From the NCBI GenBank assembly GCA_032249175.1, contig JAVVGK010000001.1, positions 1 to 42,068 of the forward strand: DNA of 42,068 nt. The letters run 5' to 3'. Source of the stretch: Candidatus Hydrothermia bacterium (GTDB taxonomy: Bacteria; Hydrothermota; Hydrothermia; LBFQ01; DSFT01). Made by a program: the position numbers and the translations under genes. The notes below the pieces were generated by a model. That model was not told the origin of the DNA. It did no database searches and saw only the letters and a program-made list of their open reading frames with translations. This document shows, in pieces, positions 99-42,068 of this stretch; position 1 is the first letter of the stretch, and every line of letters begins with the position of its first letter.

Positions 99-123
99 CT
101 TTAAATTTTAAAGCATAAAAAGT

Positions 124-270
124 GCTTTGTCCAATAATTCTAAAATTACGATTATTTCTTATTTTCCCCACCCACCCTAAAAATAAGCCTTCCGCTTAAA
201 ACTTCGCCCCCCTTAAATTCCCCCCTAAAATAAATAATTTCCTAAAATTTTGATATTTATCAGACAAAGC
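124..270 (+). repeat. MITE-like repeat, copy 1 (internally deleted form)
   Basis: Starts GCTTTGTCCAATAATTC and ends TTATCAGACAAAGC (inverted repeat). Contains the CTTATTTT/AAAATAAG hairpin with a CCCCACCCACCCT loop and the AAGCC..GCTT hairpin. Homologous to 40771-40946. Confidence 0.8.
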
Positions 271-281
271 AAAAACTTCTT

Positions 282-445
282 GCCCTGTCCAATAATTCTG
301 AAATTAAGATTATTACTTTATCTTCTCACCTGCCCTGAGAATAAGCCTTCGCTTTATAAATACCCATATTTTACCGACCTTAAAATCAAGCCTAAATTTA
401 AACCCTACATAAAATCAATAATGCTAAATCATCCTTTAAAATTTT
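282..445 (+). repeat. MITE-like repeat, copy 2 (degenerate; right end not recognisable)
   Basis: GCCCTGTCCAATAATTCTGAAATT left end. The hairpin is retained with a changed stem (TTCTC..GAGAA), followed by AAGCCTTCGCTT. Lies in tandem with copy 1. Confidence 0.6.
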
Positions 446-448
446 GTA

Positions 449-817
449 ATGAATATCTCAAAAAAATTTTTTAACCTTTTATGGCAGGTAAGTGATGAGG
501 TTGAAGAGAGAGGCTACTTGCTAAATCCAGAGATATTCTTACAGCTTAGAGAGGAACTTGCTACTTTGCTACTGGAAAAAGTAAGGGAATTTTTTAGAGA
601 ATACTCAGGGAATGCTCATTTCATACTTTTTGTATCTGAGTCTATGGAATTCAGTAAAGATGGAATTTTAGAGTATGTTGATGGTGAGAATGAGGTTGAA
701 GTTACATTTAGATATTTCATAAGAGTTCTTCCTATTCAAAGGGGGGAAGAAATTTTAAGCATTTTTAAAAAACGATTTAATTTTATTATGCTTGGAGCTA
801 TAAGAATTTCAGATTGA
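449..817 (+). CDS. Hypothetical protein (122 aa, acidic), first gene of the lanthipeptide locus
   Basis: ORF track. ATG lies 3 nt after CTTTAAAATTTT (434-445). No family recognised. Confidence 0.6.
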   Translation: MNISKKFFNLLWQVSDEVEERGYLLNPEIFLQLREELATLLLEKVREFFREYSGNAHFILFVSESMEFSKDGILEYVDGENEVEVTFRYFIRVLPIQRGEEILSIFKKRFNFIMLGAIRISD

Positions 818-861
818 AACTTTTATACCCCTTTTTTCGTTAATTATATCCTATGGAATTA

Positions 862-938
862 TATGAGCCTTTTTTTCTTAAAAATTAAAAAAGGAGGTTG
901 AAGAAGATGGTAAATGTTCTATCACTACAAGCGATGAA
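862..938 (+). repeat. Direct repeat 1 of the precursor cassette (upstream region + RBS + leader codons 1-10)
   Basis: 77 nt identical to 1074-1150: TATGAGCCTTTTTTTCTTAAAAATTAAAAAAGGAGGTTGAAGAAGATGGTAAATGTTCTATCACTACAAGCGATGAA. Confidence 0.95.
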
Positions 939-1038
939 AGGGGAGAATATGAATAAGCCTGGTGGAGCAAGTACTATAAGTTGGAGCTTCTGTTCCACAC
1001 TGAGCTGGCATTGTGGGGGTGGAAATGAAAAAAGTTAG
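907..1038 (+). CDS. lanA: Class III lanthipeptide precursor A1 (43 aa): MVNVLSLQAMKGENMNKPGGASTISWSFCSTLSWHCGGGNEKS
   Basis: Hand-translated; too short for the ORF track. AAGGAGG lies 9 nt upstream of ATG. Leader has an LxLQ motif (VLSLQ). Core has S-T-I-S-W-S-F-C (S-x2-S-x3-C) and S-T-L-S-W-H-C (S-x2-S-x2-C). Sits immediately upstream of a LanKC gene. Confidence 0.8.
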   Translation: MVNVLSLQAMKGENMNKPGGASTISWSFCSTLSWHCGGGNEKS

Positions 1039-1045
1039 AGGAAAT

Positions 1046-1063
1046 AGGGGGTTTATCCCCCCT
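1046..1063 (+). terminator. Short GC hairpin (GGGGG-TTTAT-CCCCC) between the two precursor genes; possible attenuator or partial terminator
   Basis: G run 1047-1051 pairs with C run 1057-1062, 8 nt after the A1 stop codon. No T-tract follows. Confidence 0.3.
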
Positions 1064-1073
1064 GCTATAAAAT

Positions 1074-1150
1074 TATGAGCCTTTTTTTCTTAAAAATTAA
1101 AAAAGGAGGTTGAAGAAGATGGTAAATGTTCTATCACTACAAGCGATGAA
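1074..1150 (+). repeat. Direct repeat 2 of the precursor cassette
   Basis: Identical 77 nt to 862-938. Confidence 0.95.
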
Positions 1151-1292
1151 TGAGAATAATAGTAATGGTAATAGTGTCATAAGTGCCTCCTTTTGCTCAG
1201 CAATAAGTTTATTTGGTTGTAAAAAAGTAAAGAAAGACAATGATAGGAAATATTCTCTCAAATCCTCGCTTAGCTACGGCTGTAAATTATAA
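1119..1292 (+). CDS. lanA: Class III lanthipeptide precursor A2 (57 aa): MVNVLSLQAMNENNSNGNSVISASFCSAISLFGCKKVKKDNDRKYSLKSSLSYGCKL
   Basis: ORF track 1110..1292 (TTG). ATG 1119 is preferred because it matches A1 and sits 9 nt after AAGGAGG. Motifs: SVISASFC, SAISLFGC and SSLSYGC. The 3' end overlaps the lanKC start by 53 nt. Confidence 0.75.
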   Translation: MVNVLSLQAMNENNSNGNSVISASFCSAISLFGCKKVKKDNDRKYSLKSSLSYGCKL

Positions 1293-3723
1293 ATTTAAAT
1301 TATTAGCTAAAAAACTATTACCTTCTGATTGGAAAATGGAAGAAATGGATAATATTTGGATTGTTTGCTCTAATCCTAAAAATGATTTCCCAAAGCAAGG
1401 TTTTAAAATTCATATTAGTGCTACAATTTTAAATGCTAAGGAAATTCTAAAAACTTCAATTCCTATAATTGTTTCACACAATTCTAATTTCAAATTTTTA
1501 AAAGAATTAAAAAATTTACTATTCATGAATTCAAGAATGGCAAATAGAGGCAGTAGTGGAAAATTCATTACAATATATCCACCTAATGAAGAAGTTTTTA
1601 AAGCACTATTAGAAGAGCTTTATAAATCTTTAAAGCATTATGAAGGTCCTTATATTCTTTCCGATATGAGATATAAGGATTGTAAGGTTTTATATTATCG
1701 CTATGGTGGATTTTGGAAAATGGAAAGGATAAATGTAAAAGGTGAAAGGATTTATGTTATTGAAGCACCTGATGGAAGTTATTATGATGATATTAGACAT
1801 CCATTTTATACACTACCACCTTGGATAAAAGACCCATTTGGTAATGAAACAATAACGCCAAAAGAAGAGATTATTCTTAATGAAAGATATAAAGTAATTT
1901 CAGCAATTCAATTTTCAAATAATGGTGGAATTTATAATGCTTATGATTTATTAGAAAATAAAGAAGTAGTAATAAAGGAAGCAAGACCTTATGTAAGTAT
2001 GAGTTTAAATGGTATAGATGCTGTTTATTTATTAAAAAAGGAATATGAAATTTTAAAAATGTTAGAAAATGAAAATGTAGCACCAAAAGCTTATGAAATT
2101 TTTCAAGAATGGGAGCATTGGTTTTTAGTAGAAGAGAAATTAGAAGGGATAAATTTAAGAAATTTTGTAGCTATAAATGCCCCTATATTAAATCCATTAG
2201 CAAGCGAAAAGGATTTCCAGAATTATTTAGAGAAGTTTATTACTATTGCTGAAAACATAGCAAAACATCTTTCCATTCTTCATAAATATAATATTGTTTT
2301 TGGAGACTTTTCACCCAATAATATTATTATCAATCCTCAAACCCTTAATGTAAAATTTATAGACTTTGAGGGTGCTTATATAATAGGCAATAATAAATGG
2401 TATAATGTTTTTACACCTGGATTTTCTTCACCTCAATTGAGAAAAAATAAAAGACCTACTTTTGAAGATGACTATTATGCCTTTGGTGAAATTTTACAAG
2501 CCCTATTATTTACCAACAATACGCTATTTTTTATTGCTCCAACATTAAGAAAAAAATTCTTAAATAAACTTATAAAAGATTATCATTTTCCTAAAATTTT
2601 CAAAGAAGTTATTTTAAATTTAATAAAATATGAGCCAAAATCCCGCATAAAACCAATTGAAGCTGTAAATATATTAAAAACCAATAAAAGAATTGTCAAT
2701 TATAAAGAAAATGTTAAAATAATGGATTTAAGAACTTATATTGAAAAGACAAAAAAGGGAATTATAAAGATATTTCAAAAGAAAAAGGAAGGGAATTTAA
2801 ATTTCGCATTTGGGGATTTGGGAGTAATCTATGTTTTAAATCTTGTAGGCGAAAACTTTAAAGAATATTTAAAATCTCAAAGTTTAGAAAATTATCCACC
2901 TGGTTTATATGTAGGTTTAAGTGGAATAGCTTGGGCATTTTTAGATTTAAATTTAAATGATTTAGCAATAGAAGCATTAAATAAAGCAAAGAGAAGTCCA
3001 TTATTATATGAAAGTTTAGATATGTTTTATGGTATTTCTGGATATGGACTGACAAATTTAAAGTTTTATAAAAGGTTAAAAGACAAAACATTTTTAAATA
3101 ATGCTATTGAAGTTTATGAATTTATAAAAAATAGAGAATTGAAATTTCAGGAGATTGGATATGGTCATGGAGCAAGTGGAGTTGCATTATTTTTAATAAA
3201 ATTATATGAATTTTTAAGAAATGAAGATATAAAGAATTTAGCTATTTACTTATTAAAACAAGATTTAGAAAATGGAGTAAATACAAATGGATATTTAACA
3301 TTTCCACAAGAAGAGGATAGTTCCACAGTTTTGCCTTATGTAGAATATGGAAGTGCTGGTATAATAGGTGTTTTAGTAAGGTTTTATGAGATTTTAAAAG
3401 AAGAATGGATTTTAGAATATATAAAAAATATCTTACCTGATTTAGAGAGGACATTTACGATATTTCCATCACAAATAGATGGACTTGCAGGCTTGGGTGA
3501 AAGTTTATTAGATTTAGAATTGAAATTAAATTATAAAACAAAAATTTATAAAATTTTAGAAGGTTTAAGAATTTACGCTATTTTTAAAGATGGTTGTATA
3601 TTTTATCCAAGGAGTAATCTTGATAGTATTGGAATTCATTGGGCAGATGGCTCATCTGGTATATTAGACTTTCTACATCGCTTATATAATAAAAGAAACG
3701 AGAGAACACTATGGGATTTTTAA
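1240..3723 (+). CDS. lanKC: Class III lanthipeptide synthetase (LanKC: lyase - Ser/Thr kinase - zinc-ligand-less cyclase)
   Basis: N-terminal lyase motifs: GFKIHISA and GKFITIYP. Kinase motifs: VVIKEAR, FGDFSPNNIII and KFIDFEGA. C-terminal LanC-like Gly-rich repeats: GLSGIAWAF, GISGYGL, GYGHGASGVALF, YGSAGIIGVL, DGLAGLGESL and WADGSSGIL. No Cys/Cys/His zinc triad is present. Confidence 0.9.
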   Translation: MIGNILSNPRLATAVNYKFKLLAKKLLPSDWKMEEMDNIWIVCSNPKNDFPKQGFKIHISATILNAKEILKTSIPIIVSHNSNFKFLKELKNLLFMNSRMANRGSSGKFITIYPPNEEVFKALLEELYKSLKHYEGPYILSDMRYKDCKVLYYRYGGFWKMERINVKGERIYVIEAPDGSYYDDIRHPFYTLPPWIKDPFGNETITPKEEIILNERYKVISAIQFSNNGGIYNAYDLLENKEVVIKEARPYVSMSLNGIDAVYLLKKEYEILKMLENENVAPKAYEIFQEWEHWFLVEEKLEGINLRNFVAINAPILNPLASEKDFQNYLEKFITIAENIAKHLSILHKYNIVFGDFSPNNIIINPQTLNVKFIDFEGAYIIGNNKWYNVFTPGFSSPQLRKNKRPTFEDDYYAFGEILQALLFTNNTLFFIAPTLRKKFLNKLIKDYHFPKIFKEVILNLIKYEPKSRIKPIEAVNILKTNKRIVNYKENVKIMDLRTYIEKTKKGIIKIFQKKKEGNLNFAFGDLGVIYVLNLVGENFKEYLKSQSLENYPPGLYVGLSGIAWAFLDLNLNDLAIEALNKAKRSPLLYESLDMFYGISGYGLTNLKFYKRLKDKTFLNNAIEVYEFIKNRELKFQEIGYGHGASGVALFLIKLYEFLRNEDIKNLAIYLLKQDLENGVNTNGYLTFPQEEDSSTVLPYVEYGSAGIIGVLVRFYEILKEEWILEYIKNILPDLERTFTIFPSQIDGLAGLGESLLDLELKLNYKTKIYKILEGLRIYAIFKDGCIFYPRSNLDSIGIHWADGSSGILDFLHRLYNKRNERTLWDF

Positions 3724-5249
3724 AAGAAGTCATTTTTAAATTTAAATTCTTCATCCTTATAAAAATTCTTATTATATGCTTAATTTTTCCAATCCTTTCA
3801 TTCTTTGAGCCACTTTTGAATAAATACCTATTTGATTATGGTATTATGGCAGGTGATTTTAAGAAATTTGTAATTTTACTTTCTCTAATTACTATTTTTT
3901 CATTTATCTCTCTTTTGCTTGAATACATAATTCAAATTTACGATGGATTTTTAAAAAATAAAATTAGGGAATATGTAATAGAGGCATTTGTAGAAAAGTT
4001 TTATGAACTGCCATATTCAGAAGTAATAAAGAAAGATAAGGGATATTATATAAGTAGAATTTATGAAGAGCCAACATCTGCTATAATAAATAGCTTGGAT
4101 TTATTTATAAACACATTAAGCTATACTCTTAATACAACTGCCCGATTTATTGCTATGCTTATACTTTCACCTATCGCAGCCATTACCGCACTTCCACTTA
4201 TTATCATTTCATATTTTTTAAGCAAGAAATTTCAGCCTTCTATTCATGAGCTTACTCAAAAACAATTAGAATATGAAGCCTTATTAAGAAATAAAATAGG
4301 AAACTTCATATCATCTTATATTTTTGTAAATACAAACAAAACTCATAATGTAGTTAAAAATCAATTATCAGCAATTCTAAAAAACTTTTTAAGTACTATT
4401 TATAATCTCATAAAAAAGCAATCTAATTTTTCTTATGTTTCTCAAATTGCTTCTGTAATTGTTCAAATAGCATTTATTATAATAAACGCTTATCTTTTAT
4501 TTATAAAGAGAATTACATTTGGAGATTTTGTAGGATTTCTTAATGCCTTTTATCCATTTTATTGGAACATAAGAGTTTTATTTGAATCAATTCCACAAGT
4601 CTTTTCAAGCATTTCGCAACTTCAAAGAATAGAAGCATTTAAAAATCAAAAATTTGAGCCAAAACACATTATATTTTCAGATATTATAGAATTAAAAGAT
4701 ATAGAATTTTCTTATGATAATTATAAAGTTTTTCAGAATTTCTCATTAAGAATAAAAAGAGGTGAAAAGGTTTTAATTTTTGGAGCAAATGGAACGGGTA
4801 AAACGACATTACTTTATATTATATCAGGATTTTTAGAGCCTCAAAAAGGCACTATAAGAACGATAAAAGACATTTCCATTTCCACAATAAACCTTATAGA
4901 TATGCCTATCAAAGAGTATTTAAATATAATTGTTTTTCAAAGGGAAAAGCTTTTGAATATGTTAAATGAGCTAAATTTAGATTTAAATAAGAAACCATCC
5001 GAATTATCAACAGGACAATTGAAAAAACTTTCAGTAGCATTAGCCTTATCAAAACCTGCTGATGTTTATTTATTAGATGAGCCATTAGAAAGTGTAGATA
5101 TAGAGGACAAAAGAAAACTTATAGAAATGATATTAAATGAAACAAAACAAAAAACCCTTCTTTTAACAACCCATGACTTAATTATAAATGAATATATAAA
5201 ATTCTTTGACAAAATTATAGAACTGAAAAAGGAGGAGGTAAAGATATGA
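3711..5249 (+). CDS. ABC exporter, fused permease-ATPase half-transporter (no C39 peptidase domain)
   Basis: N-terminal TM helices. Walker A GANGTGKTT, signature LSTGQLKKL, Walker B VYLLDEP, H-loop TTHD. 13-nt overlap with lanKC. Confidence 0.85.
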   Translation: MGFLKEVIFKFKFFILIKILIICLIFPILSFFEPLLNKYLFDYGIMAGDFKKFVILLSLITIFSFISLLLEYIIQIYDGFLKNKIREYVIEAFVEKFYELPYSEVIKKDKGYYISRIYEEPTSAIINSLDLFINTLSYTLNTTARFIAMLILSPIAAITALPLIIISYFLSKKFQPSIHELTQKQLEYEALLRNKIGNFISSYIFVNTNKTHNVVKNQLSAILKNFLSTIYNLIKKQSNFSYVSQIASVIVQIAFIIINAYLLFIKRITFGDFVGFLNAFYPFYWNIRVLFESIPQVFSSISQLQRIEAFKNQKFEPKHIIFSDIIELKDIEFSYDNYKVFQNFSLRIKRGEKVLIFGANGTGKTTLLYIISGFLEPQKGTIRTIKDISISTINLIDMPIKEYLNIIVFQREKLLNMLNELNLDLNKKPSELSTGQLKKLSVALALSKPADVYLLDEPLESVDIEDKRKLIEMILNETKQKTLLLTTHDLIINEYIKFFDKIIELKKEEVKI

Positions 5250-7420
5250 TAAACTTTATTATTTCCCTTGTTATAAGTGGGAAGGTTTTAGATGAAACAA
5301 CATCTGAGCCTATGGGATATACTGCTATAATGCTATATAAAGATACAATTCTCATAACAGGAACATATACAGATGAAAAGGGAAATTTCATAATAAAGGA
5401 TATAAAGCCTGGTGAATACATTTTATATGCTCACTTTATAGGATATGAAAAGCAAAAGATAAATTTAACAATAAATAAAGATACAAGTATAACAATAACA
5501 TTAAAACCATCAGGAATAGAATTAAAAGAGCAAGAAGTAAAGGCAACTGCTCCAAGAGTAAGATATGAAGTAGATAGAAAAATTGTATCACCAAGTAATG
5601 ATATAATAGCAAGGAGTGGAAGTGCTGTTGATGTTTTAAGAAATGTACCAGGTGTATCAGTAAGTCCTGATGGGAATGTAAAAATAAAAAATAGTGATAG
5701 ATATATTGTTTTTGTAGATGGAAAACCTACTAATTTAAGTTTAAAAGATATACCAGCAAGTCAAATAGAATATATTGAAGTAATAACAAATCCGTCAGCA
5801 GAATTTGATGCAGAAGGAAATGCCATTATAAATGTCATATTAAAAAAACAAAAAGATTATGGATATAGTGTTAATGTAAATGTAAATATGGATAGTTATG
5901 GGACAATTAGTCCTAATATATTTTATGGTTTAAAAATGGGCAATTTATCTACCTATATAAAATTAAAAGGTGGAAAAACAATAAGTAAATCATATTATGA
6001 AGGGCAAAAGATATTTCAAAAAGATACTATATTTGAAGATGCTAATACTAAATTTTCCTCTCTTTCACTTATTCCTACTTTTGGCATTAGTTATAATAAT
6101 TTTAATTTTGAAACAGGTGGAAGAATTTCCAATAGAGAAGGAGAAAATCAATATAACCAAACAATTTCAGGTATAAATTATACTAGAAATTACAATTTTA
6201 ATGAGAATTTTCAATCCTTTTATTTAACATCTGATTACACATATAAGAACATTAAAATTTTAGGATATTATTCAAAAAATCACAAATTATATGATGAAAT
6301 AAAGGATTCATCATCTAATGGTGGTGTAAAAATTATTACTGAAAAACCAAGTGAGAAATTTTATGGTCAAATAGATATAAAGAAGGATAAATTTTCATTT
6401 GGATATAAGGGCAGTATAAGTAATTACTTTATTAGTTTTGACTTTAATACAATTTCAAATCCAAAATTTCCATATCTTCCAAGTTATTTTATATCCACAA
6501 AAAGAATTGTTAATGCTGGTTATTTGGAATTTTCCTCTAATTATAAGAATATTCAATATAAATTGGGTTTAAGAGTTGAAAATACACAAATAAGAGCAGA
6601 TACTATAAAAAGAGAATATACAAATATCTTTCCTTCCTTAAATTTCTCATATAACTTTTCAAATCATTCAATATATTTAGGATATAGAAATGGAATATGG
6701 AGACCTTCTGATTATCAATTATTGCCATTATATCACTATCAATCATTTGATGAGATGGAAAAAGGGAATCCAACACTTTTGCCTGAATATTCAAATAGTG
6801 CGTCAATTGGTTTAAATTTAAACTTTGAAAAAATCTCAATAACTCCTGAAATTTACTTTACAAGAACAATACAAATACTTGATGTTAATGAATATCCTTA
6901 TGATACATTTAATGTAAGTGTAAAGGAATATATAAATGTAAATGAAGGTAGAAATTTCGGCTTTTCATTAAATATAAATTATACTCCCATTCAGATATTA
7001 ACATTAAGTTTAAATTCAAGTGTTTATAATTATTCCTATGAAAACATTTCACTTACAACTTATGAAATCAATAGCTCAATTCAAGCTTTTCTCTTATTCT
7101 TTGCTCTTCAAGGGAATTTATATTATACTCCTCGTTATGATTATTATTGGGGAAGGATAGGAGAGCAAATTTATTCTCAATTAGCTCTTATGACCCAAAT
7201 AAAAAATTACACATTCTCCTTAGTGTTTAACGACCCATTCAAAATTTATAAATTCAATATTACCGTAAATAAAGATAATTACTATGCTTATAAATTTAAT
7301 AGAATTCCATATCCTTATATTGCTCTTCAAGTAAGTTATAATTTCAATAAAAAGTTTAAGAAAGTCAAAAAAGAAGAAAATTATGATGTAGAAAATACAG
7401 GTGAGAGGTTTTTAAGGTAA
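5246..7420 (+). CDS. Outer-membrane beta-barrel protein, TonB-dependent-receptor-like (CarboxypepD_reg-like domain + plug + barrel; resembles the OMP_b-brl_3 type)
   Basis: N-terminal GKVLDETTSEPMGYTAIML...TDEKGNFIIKDIKPGEYILYAHFIGYEK. Plug-like SAVDVLRNVPGVSVSPDGNVKIKN...FVDGKP. Y/F/N-rich alternating barrel sequence. Terminal ...QVSYNF followed by a K/E-rich tail. ATGA overlap with the ABC gene and an AAGGAGGAGGT RBS. Confidence 0.75.
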   Translation: MINFIISLVISGKVLDETTSEPMGYTAIMLYKDTILITGTYTDEKGNFIIKDIKPGEYILYAHFIGYEKQKINLTINKDTSITITLKPSGIELKEQEVKATAPRVRYEVDRKIVSPSNDIIARSGSAVDVLRNVPGVSVSPDGNVKIKNSDRYIVFVDGKPTNLSLKDIPASQIEYIEVITNPSAEFDAEGNAIINVILKKQKDYGYSVNVNVNMDSYGTISPNIFYGLKMGNLSTYIKLKGGKTISKSYYEGQKIFQKDTIFEDANTKFSSLSLIPTFGISYNNFNFETGGRISNREGENQYNQTISGINYTRNYNFNENFQSFYLTSDYTYKNIKILGYYSKNHKLYDEIKDSSSNGGVKIITEKPSEKFYGQIDIKKDKFSFGYKGSISNYFISFDFNTISNPKFPYLPSYFISTKRIVNAGYLEFSSNYKNIQYKLGLRVENTQIRADTIKREYTNIFPSLNFSYNFSNHSIYLGYRNGIWRPSDYQLLPLYHYQSFDEMEKGNPTLLPEYSNSASIGLNLNFEKISITPEIYFTRTIQILDVNEYPYDTFNVSVKEYINVNEGRNFGFSLNINYTPIQILTLSLNSSVYNYSYENISLTTYEINSSIQAFLLFFALQGNLYYTPRYDYYWGRIGEQIYSQLALMTQIKNYTFSLVFNDPFKIYKFNITVNKDNYYAYKFNRIPYPYIALQVSYNFNKKFKKVKKEENYDVENTGERFLR

Positions 7421-7476: not shown

Positions 7477-8175
7477 TTGAAAATTTTACATTTATACTAT
7501 GACCTAATGAATACTTATGGTGATAGGGGAAATGTAATCATTCTTTTTAAAATAGCAGAGCATTTAAAATTAAAACCAAAAATCATAAAATATAGAATTG
7601 GTGATAAAATAACTGAAAACGTTGATTTTATATTCATAGGAGGTGGTGAAGATTGGCAACAGGAAATTATTTATAATGATTTTAAAAATTTGAAAAACTA
7701 TATTTTTGAGCATGTTGAGGAAAATAAGCCTTTGCTTGCTATATGTGGAGGATATCAATTGTTGGGTAAATTTTATAAAACAAATGAAGGGAAAATTATT
7801 GAAGGTCTTGGAATATTTGACATTTGGACAATAGCAGGGAAAAAACGATTAGTAGGAAATTTAATTGTTGATAGTCCTTTTGGAAAAATTGTTGGTTTTG
7901 AGAATCATTCAGGTAGAACTTATATAAATGGCTCTCCACTTGGTAATGTCATAATGGGTAGTGGTAATAATGGAGAAGATAAAACGGAAGGTTATATTTA
8001 TAAAAAAGCTATTGGAACTTATATGCACGGACCTTTCCTGTCAAAAAATCCAGAAATTGTAAAATTCATATTTAGCTCAATTTTAAATGATGAAATAAAA
8101 TTTAATTTTGATTTAGAGCAAAAAGCTAAAATGAAAGCTTTAAGTTTTAAAAGATTAAATGAAGGAAGAATTTAA
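7477..8175 (+). CDS. CobB/CobQ-like glutamine amidotransferase (GatD-like)
   Basis: MKILHLYYDLMNTYGDRGN, LAICGGYQLLG (nucleophile Cys), GFENHSGRT and YMHGP motifs. TTG start. Confidence 0.7.
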   Translation: MKILHLYYDLMNTYGDRGNVIILFKIAEHLKLKPKIIKYRIGDKITENVDFIFIGGGEDWQQEIIYNDFKNLKNYIFEHVEENKPLLAICGGYQLLGKFYKTNEGKIIEGLGIFDIWTIAGKKRLVGNLIVDSPFGKIVGFENHSGRTYINGSPLGNVIMGSGNNGEDKTEGYIYKKAIGTYMHGPFLSKNPEIVKFIFSSILNDEIKFNFDLEQKAKMKALSFKRLNEGRI

Positions 8176-15821: not shown

Positions 15822-15856
15822 AACAAAAAGTTTAAAATTTTAAAGGTTGTTTATAT

Positions 15857-15929
15857 GCTTTGTCCAATAATTCTAAAATTACGATTATTTCTTATTTTTC
15901 CCGCACACCCTGAAAATAAGGCTTTGCCT
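15857..15929 (+). repeat. MITE-like repeat, copy 3 (half element: one end plus both hairpins)
   Basis: GCTTTGTCCAATAATTCTAAAATTACGATTATTTCTTATTTTTCCCGCACACCCTGAAAATAAGGCTTTGCC. Confidence 0.8.
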
Positions 15930-15939
15930 ACCATAGCTT

Positions 15940-21647: not shown

Positions 21648-21823
21648 GCTTTGTCCAATAAATAATGTTAAATAATTGATAATCAATAACTTATAAAAAT
21701 TTTAGGAAATTACTGAATTTATCGGAGGTTTATTTAAGGGGGCGAAAGTAAGGCAAAGCCTTATCTTCAGGGTGGGTGGTAAAATAAAGAAAAATAAATA
21801 GTTTTAGAATTATTAGACAATCC
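21648..21823 (-). repeat. MITE-like repeat, copy 4 (full length, G-rich strand on +)
   Basis: GCTTTGTCCAATAAATAATG ... GAATTATTAGACAATCC. Internal CAGGGTGGGTGG loop and AAGGCAAAGCCTT hairpin. Confidence 0.85.
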
Positions 21824-21834
21824 AAACAATATAT

Positions 21835-22035
21835 GCTTTGTCCAATAAATAGTGTTAAGTGATTAACTATCAATAACTTATGAAATCTTTAATGAAATTA
21901 TAGATTTTATAGGGGGATTATTAGGGGGCGGAAGCCCCCTGCCGAAAAATAGGGAACTTTAAAGCCGAAGGCTTATTTTTAGGGTGGGTGGGAAAAATAA
22001 GAAATAGTCGTAATTTTAGAATTATTGGACAATCC
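21835..22035 (-). repeat. MITE-like repeat, copy 5 (full length, with an extra AGGGGGC-GGAA-GCCCCCT hairpin)
   Basis: GCTTTGTCCAATAAATAGTG ... AGAATTATTGGACAATCC. In tandem with copy 4. Confidence 0.85.
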
Positions 22036-22070
22036 AACTCAATTTTATCCTTAACTTTAAAATTATCAAT

Positions 22071-23264
22071 ATGGAGATTATTACAAAAGAAGAAAATTAT
22101 ATTGAAATAAATGTTGGACCTCAACATCCTGCTACACATGGCGTTTTAAGAGTTATATTAACGCTTGATGGTGAAAGGATTGTAAAGGCAAAATGTAAAA
22201 TTGGATATTTACATAGAGGAACTGAAAAGCTTGGAGAAGAAAAAAACTACTATCAAATGTTAATTTACACAGATAGGTTAGACTATTTAGCACCTTTATC
22301 AAATAATTTTGCTTATGTCAGAGCAGTTGAAAAATTGTTAGGAATTGAGAATAAAATTCCAAAAAGAGCAGAATATTTAAGAGTTATATTAGCTGAATTA
22401 TCAAGGATAGCAAGTCATCTTGTTGGTGTTGGAACACATGTTATGGATATTGGTGCTTGGACATTTTTCTTACATGCATTTAGAGAAAGAGAAAAAATCT
22501 ATGATTTATTAGAGGAAATTTCTGGTCAAAGAATGAATAATACATTTTTTAGATTTGGTGGTGTTGCTGCTGATTGTCCTCCTAATTGGCTTGAAAAGGT
22601 TTATAAATGGGCTGATGAATTTGAAAAGAAAATTTGGCCAGAGCTTATGGACTTAATAGCTGAAAATCCTATATTTAAAGAAAGAACTGTTGGAATTGGT
22701 GTAATTCCAAAAGATTTAGCAATAAATCTATCTTTAACAGGACCATTATTAAGAGGAAGTGGTATTAAAAAAGATTTAAGAAAAGATGAGCCATATTCTG
22801 TTTATTCTGAATTTGATTTTGATATACCTGTAGGAAAAAATGGAGATACTTACGATAGATTCATCGTTAGAATGGAAGAAATGAGACAAAGTGCAAGAAT
22901 AATTAAACAAGCAATAGAAAAAATTCCTGATGGCGATGTTTTAATTAATGACTATAAAATTGTTCCACCACCCAAAAAAATTGTATATTCTCAAATAGAA
23001 TACTTAATTCATCATTTTAAAATTATGAGTGAAGGGTTTTTAGTTAAAGAAGGTGAAGTATATGCTGCTGTTGAAGGACCAAAAGGAGAAATAGGTTTTT
23101 ATATTGTTTCAGATGGCTCATCAAAGCCTTATAGATTTAGAATTAGACCTCCAAGCTTTATAAATTTACAAGCACTTGAAGAAATTGCTCCTGGTCATTT
23201 AATAGCAGATTTTATTGCTTTAATTGGAACAATTGATATTGTTCTTGGCGAAGTTGATAGATGA
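22071..23264 (+). CDS. nuoD: NADH-quinone oxidoreductase subunit D (49-kDa subunit family)
   Basis: NVGPQHPATHGVLR, GYLHRGTEK, DRLDYL and C-terminal IGTIDIVLGEVDR. Confidence 0.9.
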   Translation: MEIITKEENYIEINVGPQHPATHGVLRVILTLDGERIVKAKCKIGYLHRGTEKLGEEKNYYQMLIYTDRLDYLAPLSNNFAYVRAVEKLLGIENKIPKRAEYLRVILAELSRIASHLVGVGTHVMDIGAWTFFLHAFREREKIYDLLEEISGQRMNNTFFRFGGVAADCPPNWLEKVYKWADEFEKKIWPELMDLIAENPIFKERTVGIGVIPKDLAINLSLTGPLLRGSGIKKDLRKDEPYSVYSEFDFDIPVGKNGDTYDRFIVRMEEMRQSARIIKQAIEKIPDGDVLINDYKIVPPPKKIVYSQIEYLIHHFKIMSEGFLVKEGEVYAAVEGPKGEIGFYIVSDGSSKPYRFRIRPPSFINLQALEEIAPGHLIADFIALIGTIDIVLGEVDR

Positions 23265-24343
23265 TAATAATTGTATCTTTAAGTCTTGAAAATTTTTTAG
23301 CAAAATTATATGAAAACCCAAAATTAAAGTTTTTTGAAAATTACATAAGCTCTATAAATTTTTCAAAATGGGAATTTATAAACGCTTCAAAGTTTATGAT
23401 TGAATATAATGCTATGTTTGAAAATGGTTTTTTAAGTTTTGGATATGAAATAAGTCCTTCAATAATTTACGATTTTCGTCTAAATAAAGCTAATGCAGAT
23501 TTAAAAATTTATGAAGTAGTTAAGCAAAAGAATGAATTTATTTTTCAAGCAGTTTCAACTTACATAAAAGCACTTATTATTAAGAGTGAAATTGAAAATA
23601 AAGAGAAAATCATTTCAAATTATAAAAGAATTGCTGAAATTCTTGAAAATGAACATAAATTTAAAATTGAGCATCCCATAAATGAAATTATTTTAATTAA
23701 AAGTGAAATTTCAAACTTGGAAAGTGAAATAAACATTTTAAAAGAGCAATATAAAAGTCTATTAGCAGAATTAAATGCTTATGTTGAAATTGATAGTGTT
23801 GAAGAAATAAATGAAATTCCAAAAATTCAAAATCTAAATGCTAAAATGACAATAGATTTTAGAATTTTAGAGAAAAATAAGCAATTTTATAATGATAATT
23901 TGAAATTAAGTTATTTACAAGTTTTCCCATCAATAAAACCATCAATTTTAAGAAGAAATGATGGAACTTATGCTTTTATGATTGGTTTAGCATTTTCAAT
24001 TTTCCCATTAAACTCAATAAAACAAAATAAAATTTTAGTTAGTAGCTTTAATGAAAAATTCCTAAATTACTATGAAAATTATATAAATTCAAAAATTCTT
24101 CAAATTATAACAGATTATGAAAATGCCAAAAAACGATATGAGAATTACGAAAAATTAAGAAAAGATTATGAAAAAACACTAAAAACCTTAAAGAACGATT
24201 ATAAATTTTCAAATTTTGATTTGATTGATTATTACAAATTGGAAAATAAACTATTTGAAATTGAAATTGAACTCAAAAAATCTAAATATGAAACAATTTT
24301 AAAATCCTTTGAGTTGAATAAGTATATCATAAACATCCATTAG
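23261..24343 (+). CDS. Hypothetical coiled-coil protein, possibly a short TolC/OEP-like outer-membrane factor
   Basis: Repeated helical heptad-like segments. N-terminal LENFLAKLYENPKLK resembles OEP family starts. ATGA overlap with nuoD. Confidence 0.35.
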   Translation: MIIIVSLSLENFLAKLYENPKLKFFENYISSINFSKWEFINASKFMIEYNAMFENGFLSFGYEISPSIIYDFRLNKANADLKIYEVVKQKNEFIFQAVSTYIKALIIKSEIENKEKIISNYKRIAEILENEHKFKIEHPINEIILIKSEISNLESEINILKEQYKSLLAELNAYVEIDSVEEINEIPKIQNLNAKMTIDFRILEKNKQFYNDNLKLSYLQVFPSIKPSILRRNDGTYAFMIGLAFSIFPLNSIKQNKILVSSFNEKFLNYYENYINSKILQIITDYENAKKRYENYEKLRKDYEKTLKTLKNDYKFSNFDLIDYYKLENKLFEIEIELKKSKYETILKSFELNKYIINIH

Positions 24344-35457: not shown

Positions 35458-36138
35458 TTATAATTCACTTATAAATTTTGGATTTTCTTCAATGTAATTT
35501 CCAATAACAACATAATCTGCTCCAAATTCAAAAATTTTTTCAATTGTTTGAATATCTCTTATTCCTCCTCCTACTATTAAAGGTAGATTTGTCCATTTTC
35601 TAATTTTTGATAAAATTTCAAAATTTATATAATTTTTACCGCCTGAGCCACTTTCTAAATATATTGCTGAAAATTTCATAATTTCACAAACTTTAATAAA
35701 AGATAAAATAATATCCTCATTTTCTGATATTTCATATGCTTTTGAAATTATAAATGAGCTTGTCCATTTACTTGAAAGTAAAAGATAACCGCAAATATAA
35801 ATATCCTTTTGAGATAGTAAAATAGCATTTTTTAGAATTTCCGTCCAAAAATAATTATAATCATAAGTATTTAGTGGAAATGGAATAAGAAATGCATCAA
35901 ATTGTTCGCTTATCTGATAAGAGCCACCACAAAATGAAATTATTGGTTTATTGATTTTCATTTTAAAATTAGATAGGAATTTATGAAAGTTAAAGTTCTT
36001 TATTATACTTCCTCCAAGAAATACAAAAGCTATGTTTTCATTATTATTTATATAATTAGAAATCATGTCTATGTCTTCCAATTTCCATTTATCAGGGTCA
36101 ATTAGAATTATTTTCTTTTTATGGTTTCTTACAAACAA
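35458..36138 (-). CDS. PcrB/GGGPS-family (hepta/geranylgeranyl)glyceryl phosphate synthase
   Basis: LIDPDK, FLGGS, FLIPFPLN, YLESGSGG, VGGGIRD and ADYVVIGN align with PcrB family motifs. TTG start 10 nt after the tRNA 3' end. Confidence 0.75.
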   Translation of the reverse strand: MFVRNHKKKIILIDPDKWKLEDIDMISNYINNNENIAFVFLGGSIIKNFNFHKFLSNFKMKINKPIISFCGGSYQISEQFDAFLIPFPLNTYDYNYFWTEILKNAILLSQKDIYICGYLLLSSKWTSSFIISKAYEISENEDIILSFIKVCEIMKFSAIYLESGSGGKNYINFEILSKIRKWTNLPLIVGGGIRDIQTIEKIFEFGADYVVIGNYIEENPKFISEL

Positions 36139-36148
36139 TTAATCTGAA

Positions 36149-36221
36149 TGGTGGCGGGCGGACTCGAACCGCCGACACGGGGCTTATGAGACCCCCGCTC
36201 TACCAGCTGAGCTACACCACC
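36149..36221 (-). tRNA. tRNA with CAT anticodon, elongator type (Met, or Ile2 if lysidinylated); no encoded CCA
   Basis: Hand-folded cloverleaf: GGTGGTG-TA-GCTC-AGCTGGTA-GAGC-G-GGGGT-CTCATAA-GCCCC-GTGTC-GGCGG-TTCGAGT-CCGCC-CGCCACC-A. G1-C72 is paired. Confidence 0.9.
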
Positions 36222-36223
36222 GA

Positions 36224-36297
36224 TAGCGGGGGAGGGATTTGAACCCTCGACCTCCGGGTTATGAGCCCGGCGAGCTACCTGGCTGCTCCACCCCGCG
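36224..36297 (-). tRNA. Initiator tRNA-fMet (CAT); no encoded CCA
   Basis: CGCGGGG-TG-GAGC-AGCCAGGTA-GCTC-G-CCGGG-CTCATAA-CCCGG-AGGTC-GAGGG-TTCAAAT-CCCTC-CCCCGCT-A. C1/U72 are mismatched and three G:C pairs close the anticodon loop. Near-identical in architecture to E. coli tRNA-fMet. Confidence 0.93.
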
Positions 36298-36344: not shown

Positions 36345-37346
36345 ATGAATTTTTCCTTTTGGTTAAAGGCACTAAGAGTAATTCCAAGAATAGGTAAGGA
36401 AGAATGGAACAAATTGGATTTTGTTTCAAAGTGGCTCGTTTTATCAAGGTCAGCGGTTTTTATAATAACATTAATACCATCTTTTATTGTTGCTATTTTT
36501 GCTTATTTAAATAATAAATTTGATTTTTTAAATTGGCTTATGCTTACAATTGGTTTAATTTTTGCTCATGCCCTAAATAATATGTTAAATGACTTTACAG
36601 ATTATGTAAAAGGTGTTGATAAAGATAATTATTTTAGGGCTCAATATGGTCCTCACCCGCTTGAACATAATTTAATAAGTAAAAAGGAATTTTTTATTTA
36701 TGTTTTAATTACAGCAATAATTGCTTTAATTCCTGCTATTTATTTTATATATTTGAGAGGTATTAGTGCTTTGATTTTAGTTTTAATTGGTTCATTTTTT
36801 GTTTTGTTTTATACATATCCATTAAAATATATAGGTCTTGGTGAATTAAGTGTTTTAATTGTTTGGGGTCCTTTAATGATTGGTGGTGGATATTATGTTA
36901 TAACTAATGAATGGAATATAGATATAATTTTAATGAGTTTTATATATAGTCTTGGAGCAACAAGTGTTTTATTTGGAAAGCACATAGATAAATATGAAGA
37001 CGATAAATCAAAAGGAATAAGGACATTCCCCGTTATTATTGGTAAAAGAAATGCAAGGATTTTAAATATAATAATTATGGCTCTACAATATATTTTAACA
37101 ATTTATCTTGTCTTTATTGGATTTTTCAAATTTACTATGTTAGTAGTTCTAATTGGTCTTTATTGGTTTTTTAAGAATGTTTTGAAAGTTTATTTAAGTG
37201 AAAAACCAAAGGAAAGACCTTCCAATTATCCTGATAGTGTTTGGCCTCTTTGGTATGTCGCTTTTGCGTTTGACCATAATAAAAAGTTTGGATATTTATT
37301 TTTAATTGGTTTATTACTTGAAATGGTTTTAAGAAAGGTGATTTAA
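36345..37346 (+). CDS. UbiA-family prenyltransferase (MenA-like motifs)
   Basis: NNMLNDFTDYVKGVD (NDxxDxxxGxD) and KHIDKYEDDKSKGIRTFPV second Asp-rich motif. Multiple TM helices. Confidence 0.8.
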   Translation: MNFSFWLKALRVIPRIGKEEWNKLDFVSKWLVLSRSAVFIITLIPSFIVAIFAYLNNKFDFLNWLMLTIGLIFAHALNNMLNDFTDYVKGVDKDNYFRAQYGPHPLEHNLISKKEFFIYVLITAIIALIPAIYFIYLRGISALILVLIGSFFVLFYTYPLKYIGLGELSVLIVWGPLMIGGGYYVITNEWNIDIILMSFIYSLGATSVLFGKHIDKYEDDKSKGIRTFPVIIGKRNARILNIIIMALQYILTIYLVFIGFFKFTMLVVLIGLYWFFKNVLKVYLSEKPKERPSNYPDSVWPLWYVAFAFDHNKKFGYLFLIGLLLEMVLRKVI

Positions 37347-41078: not shown

Positions 41079-41495
41079 AATTTCAACACTATCAAAGTAG
41101 AATTAGAGCTTGAAGTTCAATATCGTGATTTAGACCCACTTGGTCATGTTAATAATGCTGTTTATTTAAGTTATTTTGAGCAAGCAAGAGTTAAAATGTT
41201 TGAAAATTTATATAAAAATAATCCCAATTACAATTTTGTAATAGCACATGCAGAAATTGATTATTTGAAACCTTTATATCTTGAAAAAATAAAAATTGTT
41301 TGTTGGGTTAGCAATATAGGAAAAACAAGTTTTAAAATTGATTATGAAATATATAATTCAAAAAATGAAATCTGTGCTAAAGGCTCAACAATCCAAGTTA
41401 TGTTTGACCCCATTAAAAAGCAAAAAATTGAAATTGATGAAAAATTCAAAAATTACTTAACTTCATTTTTTTATAACCCTCATAAATCCTCCTAA
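41079..41495 (+). CDS. 4HBT/YbgC-type hotdog-fold acyl-CoA thioesterase; start codon unresolved (possible pseudogene or non-canonical start)
   Basis: The frame is open from 41079 and encodes ..ELEVQYRDLDPLGHVNNAVYLSYFEQARVKMFE.., the conserved catalytic N-terminal region. The first ATG/GTG/TTG in frame is 41196, downstream of that region. Confidence 0.6.
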   Translation, partial: NFNTIKVELELEVQYRDLDPLGHVNNAVYLSYFEQARVKMFENLYKNNPNYNFVIAHAEIDYLKPLYLEKIKIVCWVSNIGKTSFKIDYEIYNSKNEICAKGSTIQVMFDPIKKQKIEIDEKFKNYLTSFFYNPHKSS

Positions 41496-42018
41496 TAATT
41501 GTTATATAAATTAAAATTGAAAAAACAACAAGGAAGAAAAAGATGAATTTTATAAAAATTGTCATCAGTGCTATAAAAAAAATTCTTTCAGCTCTTTCCA
41601 TAGGACCTGCCTTTATAAGAACACCCAAAGATTCACCTCTCGCTCTTATATAACTAATTAAAAATGAGCCAAAAGCACAAATTATTAAAAGTATTTGAAT
41701 TAAAAAATTTTCTTTAAAAGCTACAATAAGTGATAAAAAAATTAAAGCTTCTGATATTCTATCAAAATTTGAATCTAAAAATGCTCCTAATTTTGAAGTT
41801 TGATTAGTCATTCTTGCTAATTCACCATCCATAGCATCAAATAAGTTTATAAGAATTAAACTAATTGCACCCAATAAAAAATTTTTGTTTAAATAAAAAT
41901 AAAATGGAACTAAATTTAAAATAAGCGTTATCGTTGTTAATAAATTAGGCTTAACATTTAATTTAACAAAAAACTTTATAATAGGCAATAAAAAAATAAC
42001 TCTTAACTTCTCTTTCAA
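41446..42018 (-). CDS. CDP-alcohol phosphatidyltransferase family protein (start moved to TTG 42018)
   Basis: DAMDGELARMTNQTSKLGAFLDSNFDRISE matches D-G-x2-A-R-x8-G-x3-D-x3-D. The ORF-track start (42057) lies inside the repeat terminal inverted repeat and upstream of the promoter motif (42025-42035). Confidence 0.8.
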   Translation of the reverse strand: MKEKLRVIFLLPIIKFFVKLNVKPNLLTTITLILNLVPFYFYLNKNFLLGAISLILINLFDAMDGELARMTNQTSKLGAFLDSNFDRISEALIFLSLIVAFKENFLIQILLIICAFGSFLISYIRARGESLGVLIKAGPMERAERIFFIALMTIFIKFIFFFLVVFSILIYITIIRRIYEGYKKMKLSNF

Positions 42019-42046
42019 GATTTGAAATTTTAAAGTGCTTAATAAA

Positions 42047-42068
42047 GCTTTGTCCAATAATTCTGAAA
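42047..42068 (+). repeat. MITE-like repeat, copy 8 (cut by the window end)
   Basis: GCTTTGTCCAATAATTCTGAAA is identical in type to the starts of copies 1-3. Confidence 0.7.

Follow-up and report, generated by a model that had tools for sequence, protein, structure and literature searches.

The lanthipeptide locus and its host

The 42,068-nucleotide (nt) stretch of contig JAVVGK010000001.1 that was analysed (hereafter the window) carries at positions 449–7420 six plus-strand open reading frames (ORFs), namely orf122, two small ORFs and ORFs of 827, 512 and 724 amino acids (aa). The last five make up a class III lanthipeptide locus whose core is standard and in which two precursor genes and the gene for the synthetase LanKC are followed by the genes for an ATP-binding cassette (ABC) half-transporter and a TonB-dependent transporter (TBDT). 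The conserved, tightly linked TBDT is the one unusual feature of an otherwise ordinary cluster. Domain identities, class, motif content, gene coupling, conservation and selection were established in the analysis; from these we infer all that is said below of chemistry, ring type, transport direction and bioactivity. The genes of the locus and the elements between them are as follows.

449–817, plus strand: orf122 (122 aa), directly upstream of the precursors; cluster membership uncertain
862–954, plus strand: first copy of a direct repeat (lanA1 5' region with ribosome-binding site and leader-coding stretch; AAGGAGG, then ATG 9 nt on)
907–1038, plus strand: lanA1, class III precursor of 43 aa, MVNVLSLQAMKGENMNKPGGASTISWSFCSTLSWHCGGGNEKS
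1046–1063, plus strand: G/C-rich hairpin AGGGGGGUUUAUCCCCCCU between lanA1 and lanA2, with no U-run after it
1074–1166, plus strand: second copy of the direct repeat (lanA2 5' region with ribosome-binding site and leader-coding stretch)
1119–1292, plus strand: lanA2, class III precursor of 57 aa, MVNVLSLQAMNENNSNGNSVISASFCSAISLFGCKKVKKDNDRKYSLKSSLSYGCKL
1240–3723, plus strand: lanKC, class III lanthionine synthetase of 827 aa
3711–5249, plus strand: lanT, ABC half-transporter of 512 aa (transmembrane and ATPase domains, no C39 peptidase domain)
5246–7420, plus strand: gene for an Oar-type TBDT of 724 aa, with AGGAGG upstream

The host is a candidate division WOR-3 bacterium, an uncultured diderm. 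The FtsH encoded in the window shares 80–83% identity with proteins that bear the name 'candidate division WOR-3 bacterium', a GT9 heptosyltransferase gene and an OEP gene are also present, and the GC content is 21–32% throughout with no shift at the lanthipeptide locus, all of which agrees with an earlier note, made from the bare sequence, that had described the host as diderm-like and AT-rich. Elsewhere the window carries chromosomal housekeeping genes, including those for Rho, FtsH, signal peptidase, fumarase and NADH dehydrogenase subunit D. No leader protease, immunity gene or regulator was recognisable in the locus, as the earlier note had already stated; a protease is usually absent from class III clusters (PMC7268733).

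The synthetase

Pfam divides LanKC into three domains, which bears out the tripartite class III/IV architecture previously proposed for the 827-aa ORF.

1306–1851, plus strand: lyase domain (aa 23–204; RamC_N, PF25816, 5.9e-59)
1921–2667, plus strand: Ser/Thr kinase domain (aa 228–476; Pkinase, PF00069, 4e-17)
2893–3714, plus strand: zinc-free LanC-like cyclase domain (aa 552–825; LANC_like, PF05147, 2e-21)

All of the motifs quoted in the earlier note are present: GFKIHISA (aa 54), GKFITIYP (107), VVIKEAR (243), FGDFSPNNIII (354), IDFEGA (374) and KDGCIFYP (783). The hidden Markov model (HMM) search of 1240–3723 that it had proposed returned a LanC-like C-terminal domain without zinc ligands. 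Among the three cysteines of the protein (43, 148, 786) only C786, in KDGCIFYP, lies within the C-terminal 300 aa and in the cyclase domain, again as claimed, and with a single Cys in that domain a Cys/Cys/His zinc site is impossible. LanKC passes the NCBIfam class III equivalog (NF038151; 646.2 bits, cutoff 575). The solved structures that it matches best are these.

ThurKC (8SAM/8SAO/8SAP), III-a: 1e-72, query aa 38–809
TherKC (9WJ0), III-c: 2e-70, query aa 34–818
PneKC (8WGO), III-b: 8.7e-49, restricted to the lyase-kinase half
CurKC kinase domain (7WJ6), III-d: 2.8e-24, restricted to aa 217–403 in the kinase region

The residues tested in ThurKC (PMC10604976) were transferred to LanKC via a HMMER alignment. 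Seven of the eight lyase residues are identical (K56, H58, K85, K108, D142, R154 and R186 of LanKC), K56 and H58 lying within GFKIHIS, and the eighth, K108 of ThurKC, is replaced by R99, a Lys-to-Arg change. The kinase motifs VVIKEAR and GDFSPNN and the DFE variant of DFG occur as in ThurKC. The NisC zinc-ligand sites C284, C330 and H331 correspond to S726, F770 and D771 in ThurKC and to E702, I746 and D747 in LanKC. The choice of class III over class IV made in the earlier note is supported by the NCBIfam scores, the Cys count and the full-length matches to the metal-independent ThurKC and TherKC, and by every criterion that can be tested on sequence the enzyme is a class III LanKC, its chemistry being predicted from that assignment. 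A class IV synthetase (LanL, NF038150), whose zinc-dependent cyclase would give lanthionine only, has the identical domain order and its model still scores 463 bits, but that lies below its cutoff of 650, the class III cutoff is passed, and the cyclase domain has one Cys and E702, I746 and D747 where NisC has its zinc ligands, so that this alternative is already refuted on the predicted protein.

At E<=1e-5 LanKC has 1957 homologues, most of which are longer by some 40–70 aa, and its first 17 residues are not conserved across lineages. The exact protein occurs on 19 contigs from several metagenomes, where its database label, if it is named at all, is only 'serine/threonine protein kinase'.

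The precursor peptides

The two precursors carry five Ser/Ser/Cys motifs between them.

970–993, plus strand: lanA1, S22-x2-S25-x3-C29
994–1014, plus strand: lanA1, S30-x2-S33-x2-C36
1173–1196, plus strand: lanA2, S19-x2-S22-x3-C26
1197–1220, plus strand: lanA2, S27-x2-S30-x3-C34
1263–1283, plus strand: lanA2, S49-x2-S52-x2-C55

Laid out by motif, A1 reads MVNVLSLQAMKGENMNKPGGA-STISWSFC-STLSWHC-GGGNEKS and A2 reads MVNVLSLQAMNENNSNGN-SVISASFC-SAISLFGC-KKVKKDNDRKYSLK-SSLSYGC-KL, with a Lys-rich linker between the second and third motifs of A2. The leader MVNVLSLQAM is common to both peptides, and its VLSLQ fits the pattern hydrophobic-x-x-L-Q. The earlier description of two small ORFs with LxLQ leaders and S-x2-S-x2-3-C cores is thereby upheld, with the starts now refined and with the third motif of A2 (KSSLSYGC), which had been overlooked, added. 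The likely starts are the ATG codons at 907 and 1119, each 9 nt after AGGAGG, the upstream TTG codons being less likely; independent JGI gene calls on contigs with the identical locus give the same lengths of 43 and 57 aa. According to Walker et al., Sx2Sx3C is the characteristic class III motif and yields lanthionine or labionin (PMC7268733).

Peptides of the A1 and A2 types are paired in three other lineages (related loci L001, from a WOR-3 metagenome-assembled genome (MAG), L025/26 and L027/28), the LanKC proteins of which are 49–52% identical to that of the window. In an alignment of seven peptides from four lineages M1, L5, L7, Q8, S22, S25, C29, S30 and S33 are invariant. The A2-type peptides from L001, L025 and L027 likewise have an unchanging tail, KSSLS-x1-2-C; kept in three lineages at such LanKC distances, the A2 tail is not read-through. 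The last 53 nt of lanA2 overlap lanKC and contain the third motif, which in L001 lies upstream of the lanKC start. Since this motif is kept while the N-terminal 17 residues of LanKC are unconserved, the A2 frame is the constrained one. Three Ser/Ser/Cys motifs combined with a Lys-rich linker have no counterpart among the class III precursors in the literature covered.

The two copies of the 93-nt direct repeat (862–954 and 1074–1166) are 94% identical, which suggested a recent tandem duplication of A1 and A2. This origin was rejected on account of the distinct A1 and A2 cores paired in three other lineages; as each of these has both an A1-type and an A2-type peptide the pair is ancestral, and the similar 5' parts more likely stem from homogenisation than from recent duplication.

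A hairpin after A1 is also found in L001 and L025, at the same position and with a different sequence. Its window z-score of −0.57 is not significant alone. A function as intrinsic terminator was rejected on that score and on the absent U-run; it is possibly a transcript attenuator or stabiliser.

The presence of lanA1 (window 862–1073) varies between close relatives: at L024 655–700 and L034 ~1500–1545, in two independent assemblies, lanA2 alone is carried, after a diverged copy of the spacer.

The two transporters

The lanT product matches ABC_tran (6.9e-20) and ABC_membrane (4e-4) in Pfam, and among NCBIfam models it best resembles peptide and bacteriocin exporters. Its best match there, the peptidase-containing peptide exporter NF045998, is aligned only from model position 148, and neither Pfam nor NCBIfam yielded a match to Peptidase_C39. 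The gene adjoins lanKC in L001, L015, L020–28 and L055.

Where the earlier note had recognised an outer-membrane barrel in the 724-aa ORF, a barrel is indeed present, as one part of what appears to be a full TBDT architecture.

aa 10–96: CarboxypepD_reg domain (CarbopepD_reg_2, PF13715, 2.5e-16; PF13620, 7.7e-12)
aa ~94–102: TonB-box-like stretch
aa 124–186: probable plug
aa 258–698: beta-barrel (OMP_b-brl_3, PF14905, 2.2e-42; TonB_dep_Rec_b-barrel, PF00593, 2.2e-14)

The plug scores 22.2 bits in the window protein, under its cutoff of 23.9, and is an unmarked match in orthologues. The TonB-box-like stretch, recognised by eye only, is KEQEVKATA (KEVVVEAK in L001), with KE..V invariant across lineages. 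An exhaustive search returned 13,922 relatives, among which the short subfamily of 724–755 aa has only about a dozen representatives; a scan of metagenomes with the TBDT alignment added few further full-length relatives.

Only about nine residues precede the first domain of the TBDT. The missing signal peptide was considered as an anomaly and rejected, other envelope proteins of the window being equally short at this end. Generic relatives align from residue 25–45 and members of the short subfamily from residue 3–14, and the short N-terminus looks like a trait of the host. A charged C-terminal extension past the last barrel strand was likewise discarded as a special feature, as generic family members have the same.

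Very short, uncharged hydrophobic N-termini were observed in the predicted envelope proteins encoded at 5246, 23261, 26528 (minus strand), 21602 (minus strand) and 28660 (minus strand), namely MINFIISLV, MIIIVSLSL, LLIIFFYF, MSFLLLSF and MLIIFLNL. The n-region of classical signal peptides is basic. Signal peptides may be peculiar throughout this host, or start codons may have been miscalled systematically.

Coupling and conservation of the LanKC-ABC-TBDT triad

Consecutive reading frames overlap by 53 nt (lanA2/lanKC), 13 nt (lanKC/lanT; ATG at 3711, lanKC stop at 3721–3723) and 4 nt (lanT/TBDT gene; ATGA at 5246–5249), the last two as previously reported. Between the window and L020 the ratio of nonsynonymous to synonymous substitution rates (dN/dS) is 0.23 for LanKC, 0.24 for the ABC protein and 0.20 for the TBDT, indicating purifying selection on all three. 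The loci that share the triad or part of it are the following.

L023/L024: LanKC 98% identical; whole triad in L023, contig of L024 stopping before the TBDT gene
L020–22: LanKC 86% identical; flanking genes different
L001 and L025/26: TBDT ~40% identical
L055: TBDT 35% identical; 46% GC; single-motif precursors MKRILSLQKL...SAQSSFNRCC and MMKRIVLALQ...SVSSSWQRCC
L033: TBDT 34% identical; ABC-TBDT at a cut contig end

Across L020–23 the identity of the TBDT is 85–98%. The triad is thus found in at least four lineages, in the same order and down to 35% TBDT identity. Frame overlaps, gene order in relatives and similar purifying selection support the earlier proposal that A1-A2-LanKC-ABC-TBDT reads as one unit, and the TBDT is a real, selected part of the operon of this clade.

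Several observations were made on the surroundings of these loci. At L020 6786–8000 (also in L021 and L022) only a remnant of the hairpin and spacer is left upstream, fused to the called lanKC start. The DNA further upstream in L020 holds a 333-aa gene (seemingly of higher GC, by impression) and restriction-modification genes, and the flanks are unlike those of the window on both sides; this suggests that in L020–22 the module moved or the precursors were displaced. In L027 (5547–8000; GCA_964426895.1) A1 has 60 aa and A2 has 81 aa, with a long linker before WKSSLSYCYC, and a 659-aa DUF5916-like protein is inserted between the precursors and lanKC-ABC, with no TBDT downstream. Possibly this protein serves instead as the partner at the outer membrane; next to the solitary TBDT relative of L051, too, a CBM9+DUF5916 gene was seen. 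In the distant triad loci L001 (330–956) and L055 (3797–4414) the gene for a Cys-rich protein lies upstream of the precursors, with a product of 205–208 aa (CQCEKSTCSGIFCKCNSDGTCWAI...; 27% identity, E 4e-21) with a C-terminal strand region that by eye only resembles a type IX secretion system (T9SS) sorting domain; no homologue of it is present in the window. A small protein with an extremely Cys-rich tail (...PGCCVCSDRTVCCPGGGECMGCSTCGVCCKLP) is encoded two genes upstream of lanA1/lanA2 in the WOR-3 relatives L001 (1114–1623) and L025 (35–409); it may bind metal or itself be a further modified peptide.

Proposed pathway and direction of transport

In the reading that we favour, with a probability of roughly 85%, the locus is a class III lanthipeptide operon on the chromosome of an uncultured diderm of division WOR-3, and its precursors, LanKC, ABC exporter and TBDT act stepwise. 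The leader shared by A1 and A2 contains the hydrophobic-x-x-L-Q motif recognised by class III synthetases and would be bound by LanKC, the kinase domain of which would phosphorylate Ser residues of the S-x2-S-x2-3-C motifs. The lyase domain would then eliminate the phosphate to give dehydroalanine, and the zinc-free cyclase domain would direct the addition of Cys, forming lanthionine or labionin rings. Two ring systems are predicted in A1 and three in A2, the third past the Lys-rich linker. The A1 core has up to nine Ser/Thr residues; a labionin would use up two dehydroalanines, a lanthionine one. The peptidase-less ABC half-transporter would carry the modified peptide over the inner membrane, the translationally coupled Oar-type TBDT would handle it at the outer membrane, and a protease from another locus would cut off the leader, the usual arrangement in class III.

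Several results weigh against this scheme. TonB or ExbBD genes, a membrane-fusion protein and a leader protease were not recognised in the 42-kb window. Both peptides do score on the curated precursor HMMs (NF038159, NF038154, NF033212), which speaks for them, but stay below cutoff: A1 reaches 29.5 bits with lanthi_III_b (cutoff 30, E 5e-7) and 21.9 bits with lanthi_III_a (cutoff 22), only just short in both cases, and A2 reaches 20.8 bits with lanthi_III_b (cutoff 30, E 2.8e-4) and 19.1 bits with a second precursor model (cutoff 22). Pfam RamS also matches A1, at an E of 0.0023. The precursor set is also unstable, since lanA1 is missing in L024 and L034, where LanKC or TBDT is 97–98% identical, and no precursor gene was found upstream of lanKC in L020–22, where LanKC is 86% identical. 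TBDT relatives of 28–38% identity, belonging to the short subfamily, stand alone without LanKC or ABC in L051–L054, and TBDTs normally import.

These precursor losses, together with flanks that vary between lineages, are what a decaying remnant whose product is no longer made might show. All five ORFs are intact, though, dN/dS is ~0.2, the catalytic residues are kept, the identical LanKC recurs on its 19 metagenomic contigs and the A1/A2 pair is retained at ~50% LanKC identity, and decay is accordingly held to be very improbable.

The ABC protein and/or the TBDT might instead merely be encoded alongside and serve another purpose, nutrient uptake for example, the lanthipeptide system consisting of A1-A2-LanKC alone. 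Besides the solitary TBDTs just mentioned, LanKC-ABC in L027/28 lacks this TBDT, having the DUF5916-like gene before it, and both this ABC type and this TBDT are missing from the LanKC loci of acidobacteria. Chance adjacency fits poorly with the 13-nt and 4-nt frame overlaps and the strong AGGAGG before the TBDT gene, with a triad order that is constant from 26% to 46% GC despite unrelated precursors and other flanking genes, with equal dN/dS over the three genes, and with an ABC protein closest to bacteriocin and peptide exporters. Mere neighbourhood therefore seems a poor explanation, if a better one than decay.

A serious rival concerns the direction of transport: the TBDT might re-import or sense the mature lanthipeptide, which would then be a metallophore or a signal. 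Plug, barrel and TonB-box-like stretch together form the architecture of an importer. Such a set-up would recall methanobactin operons with their receptor MbnT. All named relatives of the TBDT are annotated as TonB-dependent or iron-uptake receptors, and copper-binding peptides are described for at least one class III-type system (PMC10206099). The operon, on the other hand, has no periplasmic binding protein or import permease, its only inner-membrane component is of exporter type and resembles peptide exporters, the cores show, apart from one His in A1, no obvious residue pattern for binding metal, and a secretion role has been shown for an Oar-type TBDT, Oar itself, which has a CarboxypepD_reg N-terminal extension and acts in PopC secretion (PMC6434023). 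Re-uptake or sensing is thus judged unlikely, though it survives better than the other alternatives. Export is preferred because the sole inner-membrane partner is an exporter and an import permease and binding protein are absent; most likely, then, the TBDT serves in export, with re-uptake possible, insofar as crossing of the outer membrane can be predicted from gene content.

More tentatively, the triad may be a dedicated two-step route across the diderm envelope, in which a class III lanthipeptide leaves through the Oar-type TBDT or is brought back in by it as metallophore or signal. If so, lanthipeptides would gain their first dedicated TBDT and diderm candidate phyla their first functional class III system, with an unusual product in A2, which would have three ring systems and a cationic linker. 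For the question of how class III peptides leave cells with an outer membrane, the locus offers a compact test case of five genes and ~6.5 kb that supplies, from an uncultured phylum, a conserved candidate for the outer-membrane step.

Comparison with known systems

The locus does not define a new class: it joins a standard class III core to a conserved TBDT partner and a three-motif precursor, and leaves the classification of lanthipeptide synthetases unchanged. Whether the family had been catalogued was left open in the earlier note; the enzyme family has been, in NCBIfam and as Pfam RamC_N. MAGs of Acidobacteriota, Elusimicrobiales, Gemmatimonadales and Lysobacteraceae already carry LanKC annotations. 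The characterised class III systems are all from Actinobacteria and Firmicutes (PMC7268733). A diderm host, called atypical in the earlier note, is therefore unusual only among characterised systems and not among MAGs, many diderms having an annotated LanKC. Our literature searches found no paper linking lanthipeptides to WOR-3, nor class III lanthipeptides to an operon-encoded TBDT. The practical value is modest, namely two new core peptides for heterologous production and a hypothesis on the traffic of RiPPs (peptides made on ribosomes and modified after translation) in diderms.

The labyrinthopeptin (lab) cluster of Actinomadura namibiensis comprises labKC, labA1, labA2, labT1 and labT2. 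Like the window locus it has one LanKC for two different precursors, an ABC exporter, no protease, immunity gene or regulator, and cores with tandem S-x2-S-x2-5-C motifs able to give labionin. It differs in coming from a monoderm, high-GC actinomycete, in having two ABC genes and no outer-membrane component, and in having two motifs per precursor, whereas A2 has a third after a cationic linker. In the window lanKC comes after the precursors, with an overlap between it and A2.

ThurKC/andalusicin (Bacillus thuringiensis, III-a) and TherKC (III-c) give the best full-length structure matches, and their lyase, kinase and metal-free cyclase residues correspond to those of LanKC, but the similarity is remote, and Phe770 of ThurKC is Ile in the window protein. 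The andalusicin leader also has a hydrophobic VLxLQ-type motif. Its substrates are Thr-rich with one STxSNxC motif, unlike the dual and triple SxxSxxxC-type motifs of the window precursors, which the paper on the ThurKC/andalusicin substrates associates with subclasses III-b and III-d. The SapB system of Streptomyces (RamS-RamC; ramCSAB) shares the RamC_N domain and has ABC genes in its operon, and the window precursors weakly match the RamS and SapB/AmfS models. They remain below cutoff, the host and envelope differ, and no morphogenesis role can be inferred.

On the side of transport, the TBDT has the domains of Oar of Myxococcus xanthus (PMC6434023), that is a CarboxypepD_reg extension, a barrel and, probably, a plug with TonB box, the comparison being one of shared domains only; the cargo of Oar is a protease and not a RiPP, and it has no operon with an ABC exporter or modifying enzyme. 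PCAT/AMS bacteriocin exporters (LanT with C39 peptidase) are the best match of the window ABC protein in its transmembrane and ATPase parts, from which it differs in its 512-aa length, in lacking the peptidase domain and in the late start of the alignment. Type I secretion systems consist of an ABC protein, a membrane-fusion protein and TolC, whereas the locus holds ABC and TBDT only; the one OEP/TolC-like gene of the window (23261–24343) lies 16 kb away.

Flanking genes and other features of the window

The earlier note began the cluster at 449, a span that includes orf122, which it left undiscussed. The five genes from lanA1 onward stand as its content, and the family of orf122 is not recognisable: the protein has no match in Pfam or NCBIfam, is restricted to the near-identical strains L024 and L029–31, and has no homologue in the more distant triad loci. 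A role as immunity protein or regulator was rejected for these reasons and on an AlphaFold2 single-sequence model with an unusable pLDDT of 43. An Rfam scan of 1–1300 returned no family (best E 0.27). On the other side, 56 nt downstream of the TBDT gene, lies the gene for a CobB/CobQ-like glutamine amidotransferase of 232 aa (7477–8175, plus strand), which is not kept beside the triad in other lineages and is therefore not counted with the cluster.

A dispersed intergenic repeat of ~80 nt, with the core TGTCCAATAATTCTAAAATTACGATTATT...CCCACCCACCC...AATAAGCCTTCGGCTT, is present in five copies against 0.08 expected by chance.

123–201, plus strand: copy just upstream of the lanthipeptide locus
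281–359, plus strand: copy just upstream of the lanthipeptide locus
~15855–15938, plus strand: copy
~21742–21825, minus strand: copy
~21954–22037, minus strand: copy

The repeat terminates in a small hairpin, in which one base pair shows a compensatory change (C-G/G-C), and a shortened copy occurs upstream of lanKC at L020 7835–7885. A REP/MITE-like element is one possible identity, a small RNA another.

Towards the end of the window a PcrB-family gene (GGGP-synthase-like; 35458–36138, minus strand), a UbiA prenyltransferase gene (36345–37346, plus strand) and a CDP-alcohol phosphatidyltransferase gene (41446–42057, minus strand) are clustered, two tandem tRNA-Met genes (36149–36297) lying between the first and the second. 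The grouping is reminiscent of the archaeal-type ether-lipid gene sets reported from some FCB-group bacteria.

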